A stretch of DNA of 64,000 nucleotides from Candidatus Latescibacterota bacterium (GCA_965116885.1 OZ220741.1:1760001-1824000); one strand, 5' to 3'; shown: positions 26,306 through 34,709, counted from the stretch's first letter. Notes: generated by a model from the letters alone, not told the origin. Translations and numbers: made by a program.

Positions 26306-27529
26306 CTAAGCGAGCACCGCGACGATTAGCGCGGTTATTGCGATGATAGCACTGCCAGCAGCTATGGCGGTAAGTCTGTTTCGGGTCTGACGTGCCTCTT
26401 GGCGTAGATTCTCCCCTTGCTCAGACAGGGCCTTTTGAGTGATTTGTTCATGGGTTTCGTTTAGCTGTTTTTGGGCAGTATTCAGGGCTGATTCATACTG
26501 TTGGGCCTGTTCAGATAGAGCCTTTTGGATAGTGTCGCTGAGTATTTGTTGCAAGTTGTCGTGCTCGGCGATGTGCTGGGTTAGCAGTTCGTTCTGACGA
26601 ATGACCCGTGGAATTAGCTCCTGGTTGATTCGGTCCTGTTCTTCCCAAAAGCGGACTTTTTCTCCGATACTCGGTATTTCCGTATTTTCATCTGAGCTGG
26701 GCATTGATTTTTCTGTATTCTCGGCTAACGACGATAATAGTATCTGCACCTCCTCGTCGGGGTCATATAATGAAGCCAATGTCTCACCAGTCTCCTCGTC
26801 TTGAGAAAACTCGACATCCACATCCGCGTCCTTGAGTTTCTGGGCAGTGTTGTTCAGGTTGTTCACAGTGAAGTCTATGTGATCAAAGCCCTTAGACTCA
26901 AACCATCCGGTCGATAAGAGTTCTATGACTATATTTCCCGCTTGTAAACCAACATAATCCTCATCGTCCTCGTAGGATAAGCCCTCTATTTCTTTTAATC
27001 CCAAGATCTGGGTATAGAATTGCACCGAGTCTTCTACATCGTCCGTTTTCAGGGCGAGTCCGTCAAGACGAATTTCTGTTTCCTCGCCGCTTGACATATC
27101 AGGTGAGGCGGCTGTTGTCAACACTATCTCTACATCATTAGGGTCCAAAAAACTTACCCTCTGCGTCCCGTCATCATAGTTTTTGAGTTTGACATCTACA
27201 TCCTCATCCTTGAGTTTCTGGACGGTATTGTCTAAGTTATCTACTGTGAAGGATATGCAAGCGAACCCCTCATCCATCTCCCCCTTCGTGGCCGTTTGCG
27301 AGCCGAGTATCAAACAACCACTTATATCTTTTCCTTGCAAAGCGATCGTGTTGGATTTTTTTTGTTTTTTTCTTTTTATAAATTCTCTCTCCTGCAAAGA
27401 TACTATGTCAGGTGTACGCTCTATTTCCTTCAGCCCCAGAGTCTGGGTATAGAAGTTGACCGAGTCTTCTAAATCTTCTGCCACCAAATAGATTCCATTC
27501 AGGTTCATTTTCGTTTCCTCATCTGACAA
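26306..27529 (-). CDS. Double VOC (glyoxalase-like) domain protein fused to coiled coil and C-terminal TM
   Basis: Two DxEDSVxFYTQxLGL...FTVxNL...DP units; VRFWEEQDRIN coiled coil; terminal hydrophobic helix; start TTG 27529 or ATG 27508. Confidence 0.75.
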   Translation of the reverse strand: MSDEETKMNLNGIYLVAEDLEDSVNFYTQTLGLKEIERTPDIVSLQEREFIKRKKQKKSNTIALQGKDISGCLILGSQTATKGEMDEGFACISFTVDNLDNTVQKLKDEDVDVKLKNYDDGTQRVSFLDPNDVEIVLTTAASPDMSSGEETEIRLDGLALKTDDVEDSVQFYTQILGLKEIEGLSYEDDEDYVGLQAGNIVIELLSTGWFESKGFDHIDFTVNNLNNTAQKLKDADVDVEFSQDEETGETLASLYDPDEEVQILLSSLAENTEKSMPSSDENTEIPSIGEKVRFWEEQDRINQELIPRVIRQNELLTQHIAEHDNLQQILSDTIQKALSEQAQQYESALNTAQKQLNETHEQITQKALSEQGENLRQEARQTRNRLTAIAAGSAIIAITALIVAVLA

Positions 27530-27693
27530 ATGAAATACTTGACTCTTTCCAGCCGCGTCTCATAATAGCTACTGAATTGTGTGAACACAATTAAAAATCA
27601 GGTTGAGAATGACCCTCTTCAACTGGAGTTCTGCGATATTGACTTTTGTAGTATAACACAGTAATTTTGAAATACGTACCAGTGGAGAGGACA

Positions 27694-27900
27694 ATGGAAA
27701 CGACGCTTGATTTGGCAGGATTGTCTGAAGATCGAATACAATATCTCAAAAACCTCGTTGCGATTTGGAAAGCACGAGGTGAGAATAGTGGTGGACTACA
27801 GCCCATTATCAAGCGGAAAGTAGCTCCGTCGGAATTTATCGTGAAGGATTCTGATGTTGTTGGCGGTGAAGTGACCCGAGCAATGGCGTATGATGAATAA
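27694..27900 (+). CDS. Small hypothetical protein, antitoxin-like
   Basis: RBS GGAGAGG; ends TRAMAYDE as in many small antitoxins; no intact partner follows. Confidence 0.45.
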   Translation: METTLDLAGLSEDRIQYLKNLVAIWKARGENSGGLQPIIKRKVAPSEFIVKDSDVVGGEVTRAMAYDE

Positions 27901-28039
27901 TTTTGGTGATCTTTCATACCTTCTCTTGCAACCGAAATCCACCAAATGATACCCCTGAAGAGATTATCTCTCCAGGGGATTTTAAATTTTTCAATATGGA
28001 ACGCATGAACGCTGATCGAGAGCGAAAAGAGGGATAAAG

Positions 28040-28351
28040 ATGACCAGTGAAAAGACAAGTGTGCGGATATTTCTCGAAGAACAGTTGAAAGATCGAGAAG
28101 TCGCGGAATCATTCTACCAGGGCCTTGATGAACTGCGGCTTGCAGTTAAAATTGCCCAACTGCGCAAGCAACGCGGATTGACGCAGGCGCAATTGGCAGC
28201 GAAATTGGATACCAGTACACCGGTCATTAGCCGATTGGAAAACCGGGGAAACTGTACCATCAGCACCTTAAAAAAAGTCGCCGCAGCCCTGGATGCAGTT
28301 GTGCAAATTGACATCGTGTCTAAAGAAGAGAGCGCAATTCAAAAAACGTGA
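28040..28351 (+). CDS. XRE-family HTH protein (HigA-like antitoxin)
   Basis: IAQLRKQRGLTQAQLAAKLDTSTPVISRLEN...TISTLKKVAAAL. Confidence 0.88.
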   Translation: MTSEKTSVRIFLEEQLKDREVAESFYQGLDELRLAVKIAQLRKQRGLTQAQLAAKLDTSTPVISRLENRGNCTISTLKKVAAALDAVVQIDIVSKEESAIQKT

Positions 28352-28398
28352 ATCTTTTCCTCCCAAATTCCAATTTAAGTGCAACAGCAGAAAAGAAG

Positions 28399-28431
28399 AA
28401 CGCCCCAGCATCGTTGTGCCGGGGCGTTTTT
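28399..28431 (+). terminator. Intrinsic terminator
   Basis: AACGCCCC / GGGGCGTT stem with T-run. Confidence 0.7.
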
Positions 28432-28633
28432 GCGTATCAAGTAAACCAATCCCCAAAGGATTTTTCTGTTTATTGGCTCAATTTTATGTGATGTTGTGCT
28501 GCGGATCGCGGATGGGGCATTGCCTATGTCATTTGTTAAATCTTTATTTGCTTCAGATCACTCAGTATATCAAAAAGGGGATTATATAGGATAGTGCCGA
28601 AACAGGTATTGCTCATATATACCTCTTTAATAG

Positions 28634-28692
28634 AAAAAATGCCCACCTTTTATCAGGCGGGCATTCAGTTTGAAATTCTTTAACAACTACGT
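28634..28692 (-). ncRNA. Putative short antisense RNA (cassette unit 1)
   Basis: Minus-strand TTGCTG-N16-CATACT, then hairpin AATGCCCGCC/GGTGGGCATT plus T6. Confidence 0.35.
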
Positions 28693-28701
28693 AGTAACAG
28701 T

Positions 28702-29025
28702 ATGCATAGCACGACTACGACAGCAATCCCTATCGCACAATACCGCTCCCACTTATCTTCCGAAAAAAACATTTCGAGAAAACCTAAAGACTCCCTCAAC
28801 GCCCAGACAAGAAAAAGAACCGCAACAATGATGAGAAAAACCCACTACGATATAATGACAAAACCAAACAGTTTCATTTATTGTGTATTTATCTCGGCAG
28901 GAGGGCTCTGGCAGTGGTGCTTGCAGGACATGGATGACAATGGGAAGATTTGCTTGATCTCTGAGGTCTTCCCTTCTCTCGATGCCTGCCAGTGCGACTT
29001 CACGGTAAAGAGGGGACTGGCGTAG
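28702..29025 (+). CDS. Hypothetical protein, C-terminal part DUF1508/YegP-like (true start may be 28828 or 28855)
   Basis: VFISAGGLWQWCL...NGKI...SEVFPSLDAC pattern. Confidence 0.45.
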   Translation: MHSTTTTAIPIAQYRSHLSSEKNISRKPKDSLNAQTRKRTATMMRKTHYDIMTKPNSFIYCVFISAGGLWQWCLQDMDDNGKICLISEVFPSLDACQCDFTVKRGLA

Positions 29026-29042
29026 AATTGAAAGATTGGCAG

Positions 29043-29447
29043 CTACTTAGGCATTTTTTGCTCCAAATTTGCAGATATTTTTGGCACTCCTGTTTGGATA
29101 CTTAGCACAGTAGTCCATTTATCCCATTTTGTGCCCGGGACTACAGTGATTTTTTGACGTTTTAAGTCTGGAGTCGCTATCAATTTGTCGGGGCATTTAA
29201 GACACCAAATACCAATATGGTCAGGATCTTCCCCCTTTGGCACTCGCCATTCTATATAGTTGTAGAAAACTATTTCTTTGCCTATATAATGAAAGATTTT
29301 GAAGGCATCCCTTCTGATCTCATAATATGAGTACCCCGGCCCGGATATTTCATTTGTGGTATCTGGCTTGCCTTTATGTAACCGAACAGAAACGCCAGAT
29401 CTAAACATGTTTTTTCGCATGTGCCTGACAGCTACTTGTGAAAGCAT
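29043..29447 (-). CDS. Hypothetical protein resembling small phage tail-associated proteins
   Basis: VRLHKGKPDTTNEISGPGY resembles the LHT-x-DP...NEVSG-x-GY motif; RBS AAAGGG. Confidence 0.4.
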   Translation of the reverse strand: MLSQVAVRHMRKNMFRSGVSVRLHKGKPDTTNEISGPGYSYYEIRRDAFKIFHYIGKEIVFYNYIEWRVPKGEDPDHIGIWCLKCPDKLIATPDLKRQKITVVPGTKWDKWTTVLSIQTGVPKISANLEQKMPK

Positions 29448-29490
29448 ATTATCCCTTTCTTTTGCTAATCCCCCTCTACAAGCTAATAAT

Positions 29491-29859
29491 TTATACTTCC
29501 AACTTCAATTCTGGGTATGCAAGTATCATTGCTGATATTATCCAAAGAACGGGAATGATGCTCAGTAGTGCTATCCTCATTTTTGTTCTTGACTTCCTCC
29601 AAATGAATATCGCTGTTAATCCGAGCCATAAACTTTGTATCGCTGTAACACCGACTGCTTCTGCAAGTATCCTGATGTCTCCTTCGACAAAGAGTATTAG
29701 CCATCCTTGCCCTTCAAAGAATGCTCTCAGCGCATATTCTGGCACTTGTTCATAGGTAGCATTGCTGATTAGTCCACCCCCGACTATAAAGGTTGCATAT
29801 CCTAAGAGGGAAAGTATCGGCAGTCCAAAATCGTTCCTCATATTGAATTTATTCTGCAT
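29491..29859 (-). CDS. Small integral membrane protein
   Basis: About three hydrophobic segments. Confidence 0.55.
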   Translation of the reverse strand: MQNKFNMRNDFGLPILSLLGYATFIVGGGLISNATYEQVPEYALRAFFEGQGWLILFVEGDIRILAEAVGVTAIQSLWLGLTAIFIWRKSRTKMRIALLSIIPVLWIISAMILAYPELKLEV

Positions 29860-29872
29860 CGCTCATCTTTAT

Positions 29873-30112
29873 TTATGTATGATGTCCAACAAGCAATCTA
29901 TTTCCTTTCCTGCGATTACAGGACTTGTGGGCGAGTTGGAGGTTGGCGTACGTATTCGGACCGCCCAAACTCCGCGGCCAAATATGATCCCTTTCTGTGA
30001 GCCCGAGGCTTATCAAGATGGGATGGATGTATCCACCACAGATCCCACATTGTCCATCCTGCCGCTCATATAACAGGCAATTCAGCAGGTGTTTCAGGTC
30101 ATCCCTGTTCAT
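29873..30112 (-). CDS. HNH endonuclease (minimal, 79 aa)
   Basis: CGICG...DHIWPRSLGG...NLQLAHKSCNRRKG; RBS AAGGAAGG. Confidence 0.88.
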   Translation of the reverse strand: MNRDDLKHLLNCLLYERQDGQCGICGGYIHPILISLGLTERDHIWPRSLGGPNTYANLQLAHKSCNRRKGNRLLVGHHT

Positions 30113-30171
30113 GTCGCACCGCCTTCCTTATTTGTGCTTGCAACACGAACGGACATTCAGTATATTTACAC

Positions 30172-30247
30172 CTGACTGGCATGCGCGTGTTGAAAGTTTT
30201 GGGTGAGGCCCCTCCTGTTCCAACCAGGAGCGGGCCTCTGTCGTTCT
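30172..30247 (+). ncRNA. Putative antisense RNA to the HNH leader (cassette unit 2)
   Basis: TTGCAA(30138)-N17-TATATT(30161), then hairpin 30205-30238. Confidence 0.4.
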
Positions 30248-30345
30248 GTGCTCTTTGCGCTGCCATGAACCATGCAGGATTTACGCATTCCCGTCAAGCG
30301 GTTTCCTTCTTCGCCCCCAATTCTTTTTATTGTCTCCTACGTGGT

Positions 30346-30810
30346 TTATGGACACCAATTATATTTTCTTATTTCCACGATCCAAACAGCGTGATCAAAA
30401 GAATAGGGCCCCCAACAAAGATCAATAACTGTTTGACCATGATGAGTTATCCATCTTAGCTGTTGTCCTTTGTGGGGCGGTTGTTCATCATCGTCTGTGA
30501 CAGGACTACCATATTTCTCCATTAAACATTCTTCGAGCTTTGAACACAATGCTTGAATTTTTGAAGGTTCTTGGCGCTTAAAATTATACACCATCTCCTG
30601 CAATTCATGGGTCTCTGTATTGTTTTTTGAAAAGTTATAGCTTAAACGGCAAGATTGATCATCAAAGAGGGTGCCTTCATATTCAATATGCCCTCCCAGC
30701 GGATATGTGCCAGCAACAAATGGTTGTCTTAGGGCCCATTTTTCAGTATTTCTAACTTTTTCGATTGAATCGCCCCAAAAAACGCCTCTAATACTAAATT
30801 CTTGGTTCAT
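30346..30810 (-). CDS. Hypothetical protein
   Basis: RBS GAGGAG before MNQEF; RGVFWGDS...EKYG-x-P pattern seen in small alpha/beta domains. Confidence 0.55.
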   Translation of the reverse strand: MNQEFSIRGVFWGDSIEKVRNTEKWALRQPFVAGTYPLGGHIEYEGTLFDDQSCRLSYNFSKNNTETHELQEMVYNFKRQEPSKIQALCSKLEECLMEKYGSPVTDDDEQPPHKGQQLRWITHHGQTVIDLCWGPYSFDHAVWIVEIRKYNWCP

Positions 30811-30950
30811 ATTCTCCTCATTTCTCCTGATGTTTTTATTCAATGCATCCTACCAAAATATACAGCATGCATGGCAGTTTGTTGAGCATATTTTACCTTA
30901 TTACCTACCACACAACAATTTATACCTCCGGTACTATTGCATATAGTAGT

Positions 30951-31163
30951 TTACGAGAAGGCCGCCCAAAACTGCTGTCTAGCATGTTCTCCTGCCATAG
31001 CTTGGGTATCGGGATAGTTGTCGATCTTGCTCCAGTATCCACCATCGCTTGGAAAGTGCCTGCCTTCCTCGATGATAAGCCTGCTGTTCTCTCCATACTC
31101 ACTACGATAGATGCCAGCACTCTGGCACACCTCGCCTGCATGACCTCCAAATGGGGTGGCCAT
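30951..31163 (-). CDS. Small YjzC-like protein
   Basis: RBS GAAAGGA; GEVCQSAGIY...EGRHFP...W pattern. Confidence 0.45.
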   Translation of the reverse strand: MATPFGGHAGEVCQSAGIYRSEYGENSRLIIEEGRHFPSDGGYWSKIDNYPDTQAMAGEHARQQFWAAFS

Positions 31164-31214
31164 GTTAGATCCTTTCTGCCTTGACAAGCGACTCGCTATG
31201 CGATAAATTGTGAG

Positions 31215-31285
31215 CAACCTTCAAGGCTTGTATGGTTATTGTCGTGGGATGGCTCACTTTATGCGGAGTGAGCCATTTCCTTTTG
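31215..31285 (+). ncRNA. Putative antisense RNA to the YjzC-like leader (cassette unit 3)
   Basis: TTGACA(31181)-N17-TAAATT(31204), then perfect 10-bp stem ATGGCTCACT/AGTGAGCCAT plus TTCCTTTT. Confidence 0.5.
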
Positions 31286-31366
31286 TGCGCTTTGCACTGA
31301 CATGAACATGACTGAAAAGGCAATCCCCGTCAAGCGTTTTACATCTCTCGGAAGAAAGTAGAAAAG

Positions 31367-32083
31367 ATGAGCAACAGAGAGGTATTGGCCTGCGCAGCAT
31401 ACTATCATGCGCTCAGCCATTGGTGTGCAGCAGCGTATATGGAAGAGCAGATCCTCAAATTTTTTGAAGAAAATCCAGAGGATTACTTTAGCTCGGCGTT
31501 TACGGAAAAACTATACCCGTTTTTCTTTAGGTGCAATGTTGTCCATTCTATAACTAATGCATACGAACACCTTTTAAGATCAATTATTTATTCTGAAGGT
31601 AAGGGACTTACAAAAAAAGCTAGAGAGGATATGGGTATGTATGGGCATAACCTCGAAAAAAAGGTGCGCCATATATCCTCGGAGACAATAGAAAAATTTG
31701 ATAACAACATCAAAATTTGGTTACAAGATTTGCAACATATACAGAATGCCATGGAGATAAGTGATCAAAGTCAGACCTTGGAACATATCTCAGAAGATAT
31801 CAACTCTCTTGAAAAACTGGCAAAATATATTTGGCAAAACCAAAAATTGACAGATGTACGATATATGTATGAGTATAAAAAAGTGTCTATTATGCCATCC
31901 TTTGGTGCAATGGCGGTCTCTATAGTTTTAAGCTCCATTTTATCAGCCCAACATGTCATCCTGTTAGAGTACCCAATCTATCGTCGTGAAAATGTATATA
32001 AAAAAATATTACTCCCTTTCTTTAACTTTAAGGAGAAAGTCGGGAGTGGTAGCAGAGGGGAACTATCTTTTACTTTTTTGTAA
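31367..32083 (+). CDS. HEPN-like domain protein
   Basis: NAYEHLLRSII...GHNL...VRY pattern; AT-rich. Confidence 0.5.
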   Translation: MSNREVLACAAYYHALSHWCAAAYMEEQILKFFEENPEDYFSSAFTEKLYPFFFRCNVVHSITNAYEHLLRSIIYSEGKGLTKKAREDMGMYGHNLEKKVRHISSETIEKFDNNIKIWLQDLQHIQNAMEISDQSQTLEHISEDINSLEKLAKYIWQNQKLTDVRYMYEYKKVSIMPSFGAMAVSIVLSSILSAQHVILLEYPIYRRENVYKKILLPFFNFKEKVGSGSRGELSFTFL

Positions 32084-32174
32084 AACTTTGTAGCATAGTA
32101 CCACTACGGCACTATGCTACATAATCGCCTCCCTTTGTTTTTTACACTTCCGGCACTATTCTATATAATCCCCA

Positions 32175-32891
32175 TCAAAAAGCCTCTTGATGCGCCTTTA
32201 CGAGTTCTGCCATGCTATTAAATCGAAAATTGTAGTTTGGCATTTCGCCCGGGTCTATGGTCGCGCCGAAGCCTTCTTCATTGGAGCGCCTGTAGATCCA
32301 GCAGGAGGCGAGTCCGTTTTTGTTCGCGGGTATGTGATCGTGGAATAAGCTTTCTGCGGTGTGTAGTATTTCCGATTTTTCAATGCCGAGCGATTTCAGG
32401 TGTTCCAGCATGTATTTGAAGTTTCGATCCGCGGGTTTGTACGATCCTATGTCTTCAGCCGTGTATATGGCGTCAAATTCGACACCGAGACGGTCGTTGC
32501 TGTATTTGAAGCTGTGGTTATCGACGTTGGACAGGATCGCGAGCTTGTAGTGCTTTTTGAGATATTGCAGGGCGTCGGGAGAATCGGAGAACGCCAGCCA
32601 TTGTTTTATCGATTGACCATAAGCGGCGCACTCATCGGGCGTGACGGCGACGTCCCATTCTTCGGCGAGGCGTTTATATACGATGGCGAGGAGTTCGGAA
32701 TAGCGCATGCCCGGCGTCCAGGCTTGTTGCGTTGATTCGTGTCGCGCGTGCGCTTGAAGAATTTCATTGCGCGATAATTTTCGTTCGACCTTTGAGAGAA
32801 GCGGCTCCAGTCCTTTGATCATTCCGGTTTCCCAATCGATGAGTGTGCCATAGCAGTCGAATGTGAGGACTTTGAAATCGGTGAGTTTCAT
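32175..32891 (-). CDS. Haloacid dehalogenase type II
   Basis: TFDCYGTLIDW, LSN, YKP; alternative start 32903; stop codon lies in the element's target duplication. Confidence 0.92.
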   Translation of the reverse strand: MKLTDFKVLTFDCYGTLIDWETGMIKGLEPLLSKVERKLSRNEILQAHARHESTQQAWTPGMRYSELLAIVYKRLAEEWDVAVTPDECAAYGQSIKQWLAFSDSPDALQYLKKHYKLAILSNVDNHSFKYSNDRLGVEFDAIYTAEDIGSYKPADRNFKYMLEHLKSLGIEKSEILHTAESLFHDHIPANKNGLASCWIYRRSNEEGFGATIDPGEMPNYNFRFNSMAELVKAHQEAF

Positions 32892-32893
32892 TT

Positions 32894-33601
32894 TTAATGA
32901 CATCCCAGTTGATCGGCGAGGTCGTGAAAGTCATGGGCTATGATGTCGAAGTCGAGATCGGGGGGTAAGTCTTTTTTTGCGTCGGGTCCCCGCTCGAAGG
33001 GGCGGAATACATAAGCCGTTTTCATGCCGACGCGCGCTGCGTGGTGCAGGTCGCCCTGATGAGCGGCGACCATCATGACTTCATGGGGTTTACAACTGAG
33101 CAGTTCGATGGCTTTCAAATAGGTCTCGGCGTCGGGTTTGTAATGCCCCGCCAATTCGGCTGATAAGATGCAATCCCAGGGTAATCCGCCGTATTTCGCC
33201 ATGTTGGCGAGGAGCGATACGTTGCCGTTGGATAATGTGGCGATGAGGTACCGCGATTTTAACCGCCATAAGCCGCCTGCGGCGTCGGGCCAGGGGTCCA
33301 GGCGATGCCAGACGCGATTGAAGTCCGCGATTTCTTTTTCGGATAATCCCGAGATGCCGAATTTTTTCAGGAGTTTGTCCAGGATCATGCGGTGCAGGTC
33401 GTCGATTTTTGTCCAGGGCAATTCGCCCGTGCGGACGCGATTCATGGATGGGCCATAGCCCCCGCGCCACGCATCGGCAAATGCAGCCCAATCTACGTCC
33501 AATGCCAATCGTTCGCCCAATCGCTCGCCGTCGCGGATGACTGAACTGCGCCAATCGACCACCGTGCCGAATACGTCAAATGTCAATGCTTTGAGTGTCA
33601 T
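32894..33601 (-). CDS. Haloacid dehalogenase type II
   Basis: TFDVFGTVVDW, LSNGN, YKP, VAAH. Confidence 0.92.
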   Translation of the reverse strand: MTLKALTFDVFGTVVDWRSSVIRDGERLGERLALDVDWAAFADAWRGGYGPSMNRVRTGELPWTKIDDLHRMILDKLLKKFGISGLSEKEIADFNRVWHRLDPWPDAAGGLWRLKSRYLIATLSNGNVSLLANMAKYGGLPWDCILSAELAGHYKPDAETYLKAIELLSCKPHEVMMVAAHQGDLHHAARVGMKTAYVFRPFERGPDAKKDLPPDLDFDIIAHDFHDLADQLGCH

Positions 33602-33611
33602 TTTTTGTTCT

Positions 33612-34709
33612 CTACGGTACTGCGCCCACTGCTTTGTTCAAAGCTGGCATTAGTTCACGGGCGAATAATTCCATGCTGTATATCCAACTGTCTTTGTCGT
33701 CCCAGTCGTAGCCCATTAGCACGAGCGTGCCATAGGGACCGGTTTCCTCGAACAGGTCCAGCAAGCGACGCAGTGCTTCATCGACGTCGCCAGCGATGAT
33801 CTGTTCGGTCATCAGATAGTCCAGATTGCACTCTGAGTCGGGCATGTCCAGGTCGCGCTTGTACACCTGGCGCCCCAGGCCTCTGTCGAATAGACGCCCG
33901 ATGTACTCGTAATTTTTTGCCAGGGAATTGTGCCGCGCCTTTTTCACGGCTTCGGCCGTGGTGTCGGCCAGAAAGATTGAACGGGCGATTTTCCAGTCGG
34001 TTCGCTGCGGTTGCCGTCCCGCCTGCAGGGTGCTCTGCTCATAGATCTGCCAGTTGTCGGCTACCACATTGCCCGATATCAGGCAGGCGGAAAAGGGCTG
34101 GAAGCCGCGCTCGCCAGCTGTTTGCATGCTGTGTGAGTTGCGGCTCATTCCCGGCATGGCGATGGGCGGGTAGGGCTGTTGAAAGGGTTTGTGGATGAAG
34201 CCGATCTGGGTTTCTTCGTCAATATTGTCTTTGAGCTGGAATTGCCAGTATTTTCCCCGGTGCTCATAGGGTGGATCCGATGTCCATAAATTTAGGATGG
34301 CGTCAATGGCTTCCCCGGTCATTGCGCCGCCCGCTTTGGGATCCAGGCCGTACAGCTCCTGATCTGAGGTGACACTGCCCGGGCCAAAGCACAGATTGAG
34401 TCGGCCTTTGGATAGGTGATCCAGGAAAGATAGACGACTGGCGACATAGGCGGGGTGGTGCAGGTTCAAACAGACCGGTGCCGGTCCCAGGCGGATGCTC
34501 TGGGTCTCACCCAGGGCGCGTCCGATGAAAATTTCGGGCGTGACAATGGTCTCGTATTTCATGGTGTGGTGTTCGCCGATCCAAAATTCATCAAAGCCCA
34601 GTTCCTCGGCTTTGACAACGAGTTCCAAATCCTCGTCAAATCCCTGACTCAAAGGCTTGTCCGGGGCGTGGAAGGGCATGATGAACATACCGTATTTGAT
34701 GGGTTCCAT
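33612..34709 (-). CDS. LLM-class flavin-dependent monooxygenase
   Basis: AEELGFDEFWIGEHH, LDHLSKGR, ELFARELMP. Confidence 0.92.
   Translation of the reverse strand: MEPIKYGMFIMPFHAPDKPLSQGFDEDLELVVKAEELGFDEFWIGEHHTMKYETIVTPEIFIGRALGETQSIRLGPAPVCLNLHHPAYVASRLSFLDHLSKGRLNLCFGPGSVTSDQELYGLDPKAGGAMTGEAIDAILNLWTSDPPYEHRGKYWQFQLKDNIDEETQIGFIHKPFQQPYPPIAMPGMSRNSHSMQTAGERGFQPFSACLISGNVVADNWQIYEQSTLQAGRQPQRTDWKIARSIFLADTTAEAVKKARHNSLAKNYEYIGRLFDRGLGRQVYKRDLDMPDSECNLDYLMTEQIIAGDVDEALRRLLDLFEETGPYGTLVLMGYDWDDKDSWIYSMELFARELMPALNKAVGAVP

Follow-up and report, generated by a model that had tools for sequence, protein, structure and literature searches.

A putative non-autonomous cargo cassette with IS1595-type ends in a Latescibacterota genome

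Mobile insertion cassettes (MICs) carry passenger genes between the inverted repeats of an insertion sequence (IS), flanked by a target duplication. They encode no transposase, need the cognate transposase of a related IS for their movement and are usually absent from genome annotations. MIC231, reportedly described by De Palmenaer et al. in 2004, is said to be derived from IS231 of Bacillus cereus. Siguier, Gagnevin and Chandler reportedly described transporter IS (tIS) in 2009, that is, the passenger-carrying members of the IS1595 family, together with an ISNwi1 "plus passenger" group. Here, we analyzed a stretch of 64,000 nucleotides from Candidatus Latescibacterota bacterium (GCA_965116885.1 OZ220741.1:1760001-1824000), called the window in the following, which contains a 3.6-kb element without a transposase gene; unless stated otherwise, coordinates are counted from its first letter. 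With a probability of about 0.88, this element is a non-autonomous MIC that originated from passenger-carrying IS1595 elements and has ISNwi1-like ends, the subgroup being presumed. MICs are an already described kind of element, as are MITEs (miniature transposable elements with inverted repeats), solo ends and passenger-carrying IS1595 elements (PMC3129680).

The element resembles a MIC in its IS-type inverted repeats and duplication around passenger genes, in the missing transposase and in the dependence on a helper. In contrast to MIC231, whose parent belongs to IS4/IS231, the parent here is IS1595, the cargo is large (seven open reading frames (ORFs), 3.6 kb), and the host has no intact helper. 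With the tIS it shares ends starting with GGGGATTAT, an 8-bp A/T-rich duplication and passengers enclosed by them. The sister elements bounded by this motif are tIS of 2.0 to 4.9 kb that encode a zinc-ribbon and DDE transposase, the tIS-defining gene that the window element lacks. Since neither a transposase family nor any tblastn trace of one was detected inside it, the element is a derivative rather than an IS or a tIS. MITEs are likewise non-autonomous with the same kind of ends and duplication, and miniatures of this family exist (116 bp in the same genome, 410 bp at locus L093), but MITEs are short and non-coding, whereas the window element has seven ORFs. For the ISApl4/IS1016 group of the IS1595 family, PMC12561309 gives 8-bp repeats that are preferably A/T-rich, ends that begin with GGGG and a transposase that has a DDE-K motif with the stretch NGIENFW...K. 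The 8-bp A/T-rich repeats, the GGGG start of the ends and an NGIESFW...K stretch in the transposase of a sister element (G015, see below) are similar. IS1016-type elements differ in their size of about 0.7 kb, in their 14-bp ends (GGGGCTG...) and in the lack of passengers, compared to ends of 23 nt beginning with GGGGATTAT in the window.

Boundaries of the element and its insertion site

The cassette spans positions 28577 to 32173 of the window (3,597 bp). According to sequence inspection, its terminal inverted repeats (28577–28599 and 32151–32173) agree at 22 of 23 positions, and in a repeat search the arms lengthened to 26 nt at 92%. The A/T-rich octamer ATCAAAAA abuts both ends as an exact 8-bp duplication (28569–28576 and 32174–32181). 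Its right copy contains the stop codon (32175–32177) of a HAD-family ORF on the minus strand (32175–32903; Pfam Hydrolase and HAD_2). Three copies of the end motif were found in the window at up to three mismatches, compared to 0.00 expected from 100 shuffles. The third copy is an inner right end (32107–32129, three mismatches) located 44 nt inside the true end; paired with the left end, it gives a duplication match of just 1/8, and the last transposition therefore did not use it as an end. The GC content of the element is 42.1% (genome, 51.1%), which places it at the 1.2nd percentile among 3.6-kb windows, and the cargo is low-GC foreign DNA.

The insertion was traced in relatives of the host and in metagenomic data. 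A DNA search of 40 relatives was performed with window positions 27000–34000, after which nine loci were probed with the right flank. In some of the relatives, the left-flank and right-flank matches overlap by nine bases. The right-flank probe matched seven of the nine loci, three of which retain the left flank and four of which have unrelated DNA in its place. In G017, the flanks meet on a single ATCAAAAA, and the 32 nt to the left are identical to the window; G008 likewise has one ATCAAAAA at the joint and differs by 2 nt upstream. The site is element-free in G015, too, but its octamer has diverged. In the RNA-library run X16 (labelled as sponge metagenome), a contig links position 28568 to 32174 and omits 3,605 nt, the nine letters at the joint being compatible with either side. 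The occupied form is represented by contigs of the runs X1 and X2, which stem from two studies and span both junctions. Most of the element is not covered in X3 and X16; a contig crosses the gap in X16 and none does in X3. The cassette is a single-copy element in its own genome of 5.56 Mb. The element was thus inserted as a unit at this site. The earlier note, which was made from the sequence, had proposed 23-bp inverted repeats with 22 matches, an exact 8-bp duplication including the HAD stop codon and seven short ORFs without a transposase. The repeats hold up in the sequence, the repeat search and the shuffles, the stop codon does lie in the right ATCAAAAA, and the ORFs (79 to 238 aa) matched no transposase family. 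The clean empty site with one ATCAAAAA that it had called for was found in G017 and G008, and the X16 joint agrees with it.

A sister copy of the right-hand part is present at another site. In the sponge metagenome run X3, a 2,162-nt contig matches window positions 31075–32143 with 13 differences in 1,069 nt (98.8% identity); the match is followed by an end and then by unrelated flanking DNA. The HAD locus of this run has a different neighbor.

The features at the boundaries are as follows.

28569..28576, no strand: left copy of the target duplication ATCAAAAA, read in the sequence; present once at the G017 and G008 empty sites
28577..28599, plus strand: left inverted repeat (IRL), 23 nt, with the likeness reaching 28602; the motif also bounds transposase-bearing IS1595 elements
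28637..28666, minus strand: terminator-like hairpin with 12 pairs, 6 of them GC, followed by the T run TTTCTATTAA; predicted by a consensus scan alone
32089..32129, no strand: hairpin formed by a partial inverted end copy (32089–32102) and the inner right-end copy (32107–32129); repeat search
32141..32169, plus strand: promoter-like site directed outward (TTTACA, 17 nt, TATAAT; 11 of 12 matches); predicted by a consensus scan alone
32151..32173, minus strand: right inverted repeat (IRR), 23 nt; sequence and repeat search
32174..32181, no strand: right copy of the target duplication ATCAAAAA with the HAD stop codon; sequence and ORF call

The terminator-like hairpin at 28637–28666 lies where the block of minus-strand genes ends on its downstream side, and the 14-bp hairpin at 32089–32129 directly follows the stop codon of ORF7. 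The −10 hexamer of the promoter-like site lies within the right inverted repeat, and the site points antisense into the HAD gene. Nested or doubled ends were also observed in the G020 element, whose inner right end is located 944 bp inside, and in the G019 element (two inner left ends). Outside the cassette, short sequences of 35 to 85 nt (28374–28457, 27926–27997, 27529–27591, and 27639–27675) have many copies with 80% to 100% identity across the genus. The first of them is a GC-rich, terminator-like hairpin, and these sequences resemble a small dispersed repeat family.

Related elements with a transposase and the remnants in the host genome

The same ends enclose IS1595 transposases in other species of the genus. 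The IS1595 DDE domain (PF12762) was detected in 13 of 21 genus genomes (11 over the cut-off), and the end motif at up to two mismatches in 19 of 21, with 0 matches for the reversed control. The G015 element (4,940 bp) has two identical ends, an exact 8/8 duplication and a transposase of 313 aa that scored 198 bits on NCBIfam NF033547 (cut-off 75). An exact 8/8 duplication also flanks the G020 element (4,717 bp), whose transposase reached 185 bits on the same model. In the G019 element, the transposase is broken; this element contains a homologue of ORF6. The Pfam domains of the sister elements are DDE_Tnp_IS1595 and Zn_ribbon_IS1595 (PF12762 and PF12760).

The search was extended to contigs of species-representative genomes, where an exact end-pattern scan gave at least 134 loci, 80 of which were fetched with full flanks. 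Among the matches listed, to which the statements in this paragraph are limited, the loci belong to metagenome-assembled genomes (MAGs) throughout. The taxa given in their titles are Latescibacterota, Poribacteria, Binatia, Thermodesulfobacteriota, Nitrosomonadaceae, Paracoccaceae and other Alphaproteobacteria, and Gammaproteobacteria, as well as Chloroflexi/Dehalococcoidia/Caldilineaceae, Gemmatimonadetes, Spirochaetia, Rhodothermales, and Terriglobia. The ends form 33 pairs, of which 22 have an exact 8-bp duplication, mostly A/T-rich by inspection, and 18 of these 22 enclose a match of at least 299 aa to the G015 transposase (51% to 59% identity). The element sizes range from 1,386 bp (transposase alone) to 4,940 bp. 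Four exact-duplication pairs are without a full-length transposase match (L081, L093, L082, and L112). L093 is a 1,730-bp composite of the 410-bp miniature elements, and L082 and L112 have a partial transposase match of 156 aa only.

The fourth of these pairs, L081:6001-7414 from a Rhodothermales MAG, comprises 1,414 bp with an exact 8-bp duplication, and its sole gene is TnpB-like (Cas12f1-like TNB, OrfB_IS605). Here, TnpB travels as a passenger between the ends of another transposon family. A further observation concerns G016, in which 22 of 36 IS1595 DDE matches have at least one internal stop, mostly a single in-frame TGA, which is explained either by the multiplication of one defective copy or by a recoded stop.

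The IS1595-type ends proposed in the earlier note are thereby borne out, the 23-nt motif being the boundary of transposase-bearing elements in G015, in G020, and in 18 further pairs among the matches listed. From the sequences, the ends are those of IS1595-family elements that often bear passengers. The ends of the window, starting with GGGGATTAT, fit GGnnATTAT, which we take to be the ISfinder end consensus of the ISNwi1 group. In plasmid records, relatives are labelled just "IS1595 family transposase."

In the genome that contains the cassette, 11 end-motif matches were found at up to three mismatches compared to none for the reversed control, and a position-weight scan gave 39 end-like sites of at least 16 bits compared to seven. 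The strong sites are mostly solo. Two of the other ends delimit a miniature element of 116 bp with an 8/8 duplication. A second pair of ends, separated by 4,435 bp and flanked by a 7/8 duplication, has five ORFs between them, one with an FRG domain, and no transposase. The search with the G015 transposase, in contrast, recovered only two decayed remnants in this genome and no intact cognate copy. The first (4641680–4641928 of the genome) is an N-terminal zinc-ribbon stub of 83 aa with 88% identity to the G015 transposase, and the second (4632182–4632391) consists of two short pieces of an internally deleted transposase. Of the genome search suggested in the earlier note, the part concerning further copies of the ends was successful (11 matches and the second transposase-less element), whereas an intact IS1595 transposase was found in sister species and in MAGs of other phyla, but not in this genome.

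Both remnants lie in an island of the host genome (G000:C1:4630000-4665000; L186, L019) that also comprises four solo right ends in one orientation, the 116-bp miniature element, a methylase-HNH fusion, and a weak HicA-like ORF. The methylase-HNH fusion is encoded just inside one of the solo right ends of the genome and a SocA/Panacea antitoxin inside another. At 4.63–4.64 Mb, the DNA behind the serially arranged solo right ends was searched for degenerate left ends, and none were found.

Cargo genes of the cassette and of its sister elements

The cargo genes encode an HNH nuclease, one HEPN-like and one probable small membrane protein, two recurring small passenger proteins, and two orphans. 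The genes and two intergenic modules are arranged as follows.

28702..29025, plus strand: ORF1, 107 aa, doubtful gene; no family and no homologue in the fetched loci
29043..29447, minus strand: ORF2, 134 aa, orphan; no family and no PDB relative
29491..29859, minus strand: ORF3, probable small membrane protein of 122 aa, hydrophobic; judged from the translation
29873..30112, minus strand: ORF4, stand-alone HNH nuclease of 79 aa; PF01844 and PHROG HNH families
30195..30320, minus strand: intergenic module 1, a hairpin and a conserved stretch upstream of the HNH gene; copy of module 2
30346..30843, minus strand: ORF5, 165 aa, recurring passenger family; homologues in the G015 element, at a G020 locus and in metagenomes
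30951..31217, minus strand: ORF6, conserved small protein of 88 aa, with the ATG at 31163 as its likely start; homologues in the G019 element and at a G013 locus
31240..31350, minus strand: intergenic module 2, between ORF6 and ORF7; copy of module 1
31367..32083, plus strand: ORF7, helical HEPN-like protein of 238 aa, hydrophobic in its C-terminal part; motif and best fold matches

None of the seven ORFs belongs to a transposase family in Pfam, NCBIfam, or PHROGs, and when the element was searched with the cognate transposase by tblastn, even E ≤ 100 gave noise of 7 to 10 residues only. ORF4 scored 44.8 bits on PF01844 (cut-off 21.4). It shares 41% to 46% identity over 59 aa with HNH passengers of sister elements and 42% with the methylase-HNH fusion of its own genome. 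No methylase remnant was found upstream of ORF4, where three methylase or methylase-HNH queries matched the HNH domain alone. In the autonomous G015 element, the end-proximal passenger is a relative of ORF5 (28% identity, E 1e-7); ORF5 further matches a G020 locus (34%) and has three metagenome homologues (34% to 63%). For ORF6, the amino acid identity amounts to 61% to 66% with the passenger of the G019 element and to 53% with the G013 locus. ORF2 matched only itself among 5.8 billion clustered proteins, and PDB sequence searches with ORF2, ORF5, and ORF6 returned chance-level rows only. The match of ORF3 to Bax1-I (Pfam) is below the threshold (17.3 bits, cut-off 34.1).

ORF7 has four real relatives in 1.84 billion representatives, its own cluster counted. 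R55, N57, and H60, which form an R-x4-H motif (R55-C-N-V-x-H60), are invariant in all four family members. AlphaFold2 (AF2) on the four-row alignment gave a pLDDT of 69.6 and a pTM of 0.75, one of five models being confident; with the single sequence, the pLDDT was 38. The best VIA-align matches of the model are HEPN proteins (1ufb, Z 12.0, rmsd 2.8, 126 aligned; 3o10 and 2hsb, Z 10.8), followed by 1wol, 8xdj, 5yep, 9bj5, 7ae2, and Csm6; these Z values lie in the range below about 13 that is frequent for helical bundles. Foldseek of the model against the PDB returned nothing at E ≤ 0.001, and the ORF7 profile matched no PDB sequence at E ≤ 1. A word-index search found ORF7 itself only, the ESM Atlas gave no usable match, and among 176 pattern matches in metagenome contigs none was a relative by tblastn. 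With PHROGs, the cargo matched HNH families and, in the case of ORF7, one weak unknown family; PADLOC reported one weak 2TM-effector match for ORF7 (E 0.0015).

The labels that the earlier note had given to the ORFs fared differently. The HNH assignment of ORF4 is confirmed by PF01844 above the cut-off. A HEPN-like nature of ORF7 is suggested by the R-x4-H motif and the best fold matches, but the Z values are not decisive and Foldseek found nothing. The membrane label of ORF3 is plausible by inspection, but the Bax1-I match is sub-threshold. The labels DUF1508-like (ORF1), phage-tail-like (ORF2), and YjzC-like (ORF6) are unsupported: no match was obtained in Pfam at E ≤ 0.1, in PHROGs and NCBIfam at E ≤ 0.01, or in the PDB sequence searches made for ORF2 and ORF6.

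Modules 1 and 2 match each other at 75% over 69 nt and precede the HNH gene and ORF6, respectively. Their hairpins differ in sequence and are followed by a conserved stretch of about 70 nt with a −35-like hexamer, TTGACG. Within the genus, the module was detected only as its own second copy and as a 29-nt piece located next to the homologue of ORF6 in G013. Rfam gave no match in 27500–33000 at E ≤ 1.

The cargo of the sister elements was examined in 25 intervals, the second copies L088 and L096 being left out. DNA methylases, restriction endonucleases (BglII-type, Eco47II-type, GmrSD-HNH), or HNH-type nucleases are encoded in 10 of the 25 intervals. Elsewhere among the sister elements, we observed a SocA/Panacea antitoxin, an ImmA/IrrE peptidase and further proteases, as well as nested IS elements and unknowns. 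The HNH genes of the sisters adjoin a full IS1595 transposase and are mostly fused to or located beside a DNA methylase, as in restriction-modification units. Multi-copy elements with complete restriction-modification pairs were observed in a Roseovarius MAG (L052/L088) and in a Nitrosomonadaceae MAG (L116/L072/L098). One of the two pairs an MT-A70 methylase with a BglII-type endonuclease; the other has an N6/N4 methylase, an Eco47II-type endonuclease, and a SocA/Panacea antitoxin. L052 and L088 each have an exact 8-bp duplication at different sites; in the Nitrosomonadaceae MAG, the duplication is 8/8 for L116 and 2/8 for L072. By analogy with this sister cargo, a role of the window cargo in defence or addiction is plausible, considering its HNH and HEPN-like proteins.

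Origin of the cassette and its significance

The origin proposed in the earlier note, a non-autonomous IS1595-derived cassette, is supported by the end copies, the transposases of the sister elements, and the empty sites. A transposase supplied from elsewhere would have bound both inverted ends, the A/T-rich target, ATCAAAAA directly behind the HAD gene, would have been cut with an 8-bp stagger, and the element would have been joined in, with repair of the stagger yielding the 8-bp duplication. The transposase copies of the lineage have decayed in the meantime, which leaves the cassette stranded as the single copy now present. The cargo may act as a conflict or addiction module, as the restriction-modification, nuclease, and toxin-antitoxin genes of the sister elements suggest by analogy.

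An unlikely alternative is that an autonomous element was inserted at this site and subsequently lost its transposase gene in place by internal deletion, so that the cassette was never mobilized in trans. Autonomous sisters of similar size (2.0 to 4.9 kb) with the same ends are common, internally deleted transposase remnants occur elsewhere in the lineage, and the inner right-end copy with the hairpin at 32089–32129 hints at a past rearrangement near the right end. However, not even at E ≤ 100 is any remnant of a transposase gene present in the element; its seven ORFs are intact, and neither the ends nor the duplication show wear. Furthermore, the right-hand part has a sister at another site in run X3, and exact duplications also flank other elements that lack a transposase (116 bp in the own genome; 1,414 bp at L081), which indicates that trans-mobilization occurs in this family.

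It is very improbable that the cassette has its own way of moving, such as homing by the HNH nuclease, and that the IS1595-like ends are incidental. HNH genes do recur between these ends, but those of the sisters stand beside a full IS1595 transposase and mostly together with a methylase. Terminal inverted repeats with an 8-bp duplication are the signature of DDE transposition rather than of homing, and the 23-nt motif of the ends is the same as in transposase-bearing elements. The chance of a strain-specific islet gained by recombination and surrounded by fortuitous repeats is negligible: the A/T-rich, low-complexity target favors short repeats by chance, but the motif is expected 0.00 times in shuffles and occurs 11 times in the genome (0 reversed), the empty site is exact to the base, and 18 independent elements among the matches listed combine the same ends with a transposase and the 8-bp duplication.

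Some results weigh against the interpretation as a trans-mobilized IS1595-derived cassette. PF12762 was not found in the own genome, a single 5.56-Mb contig with 98.4% completeness, and because this genome is without an intact cognate transposase, mobilization in trans is inferred for the host lineage rather than observed. The whole cassette was not recovered from any of the 20 other genus genomes, in which the ORF6 region alone was matched (G019 and G013). The X3 contig begins 46 nt ahead of the match and covers the right-hand 1.1 kb of the sister copy only. The assignment to the ISNwi1 subgroup follows from the presumed end consensus. With regard to the cargo, PADLOC matched no defence system, and its matches to Cas9 and PtuB models are generic HNH matches; the defence-like character put forward in the earlier note is supported only by the sister cargo and by the HNH and HEPN-like matches, but not by PADLOC. 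Finally, the broad distribution of the ends points to an old family and gives no evidence of recent transfer across phyla, since the transposases of different groups are at most 77% identical. This best value among the fetched elements was reached within the Alphaproteobacteria. Very recent transfer between phyla had been considered and was dropped, as no near-identical transposases were found across phyla among the fetched elements.

These kinds of element are already known, and the cassette adds an example rather than a principle. It cannot be seen as mobile by gene-based annotation because it encodes neither a transposase nor an integrase. For this cassette, one can trace the precise empty site, the helper that matches its ends, and how this helper decayed in the host lineage. 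ORF7 represents an almost orphan HEPN-like family and is a candidate for testing toxicity or phage defence. It is a tentative and rather doubtful idea that the cargo, with its HNH nuclease, the HEPN-like protein and its hydrophobic tail, the small membrane protein and conserved small partner proteins, is an undescribed conflict or addiction module and that the IS1595/ISNwi1-type ends are at the same time a general shuttle, with or without a transposase, in apparently sponge-associated uncultured bacteria. If true, this shuttle would transport genes for restriction-modification, for nucleases, for toxin-antitoxin pairs, and even for TnpB. The cargo of the family, in MAGs of many phyla, includes methylases, restriction enzymes, HNH nucleases, an antitoxin, and TnpB, and scanning for these ends would expose mobile cargo that is missed by transposase-based searches.

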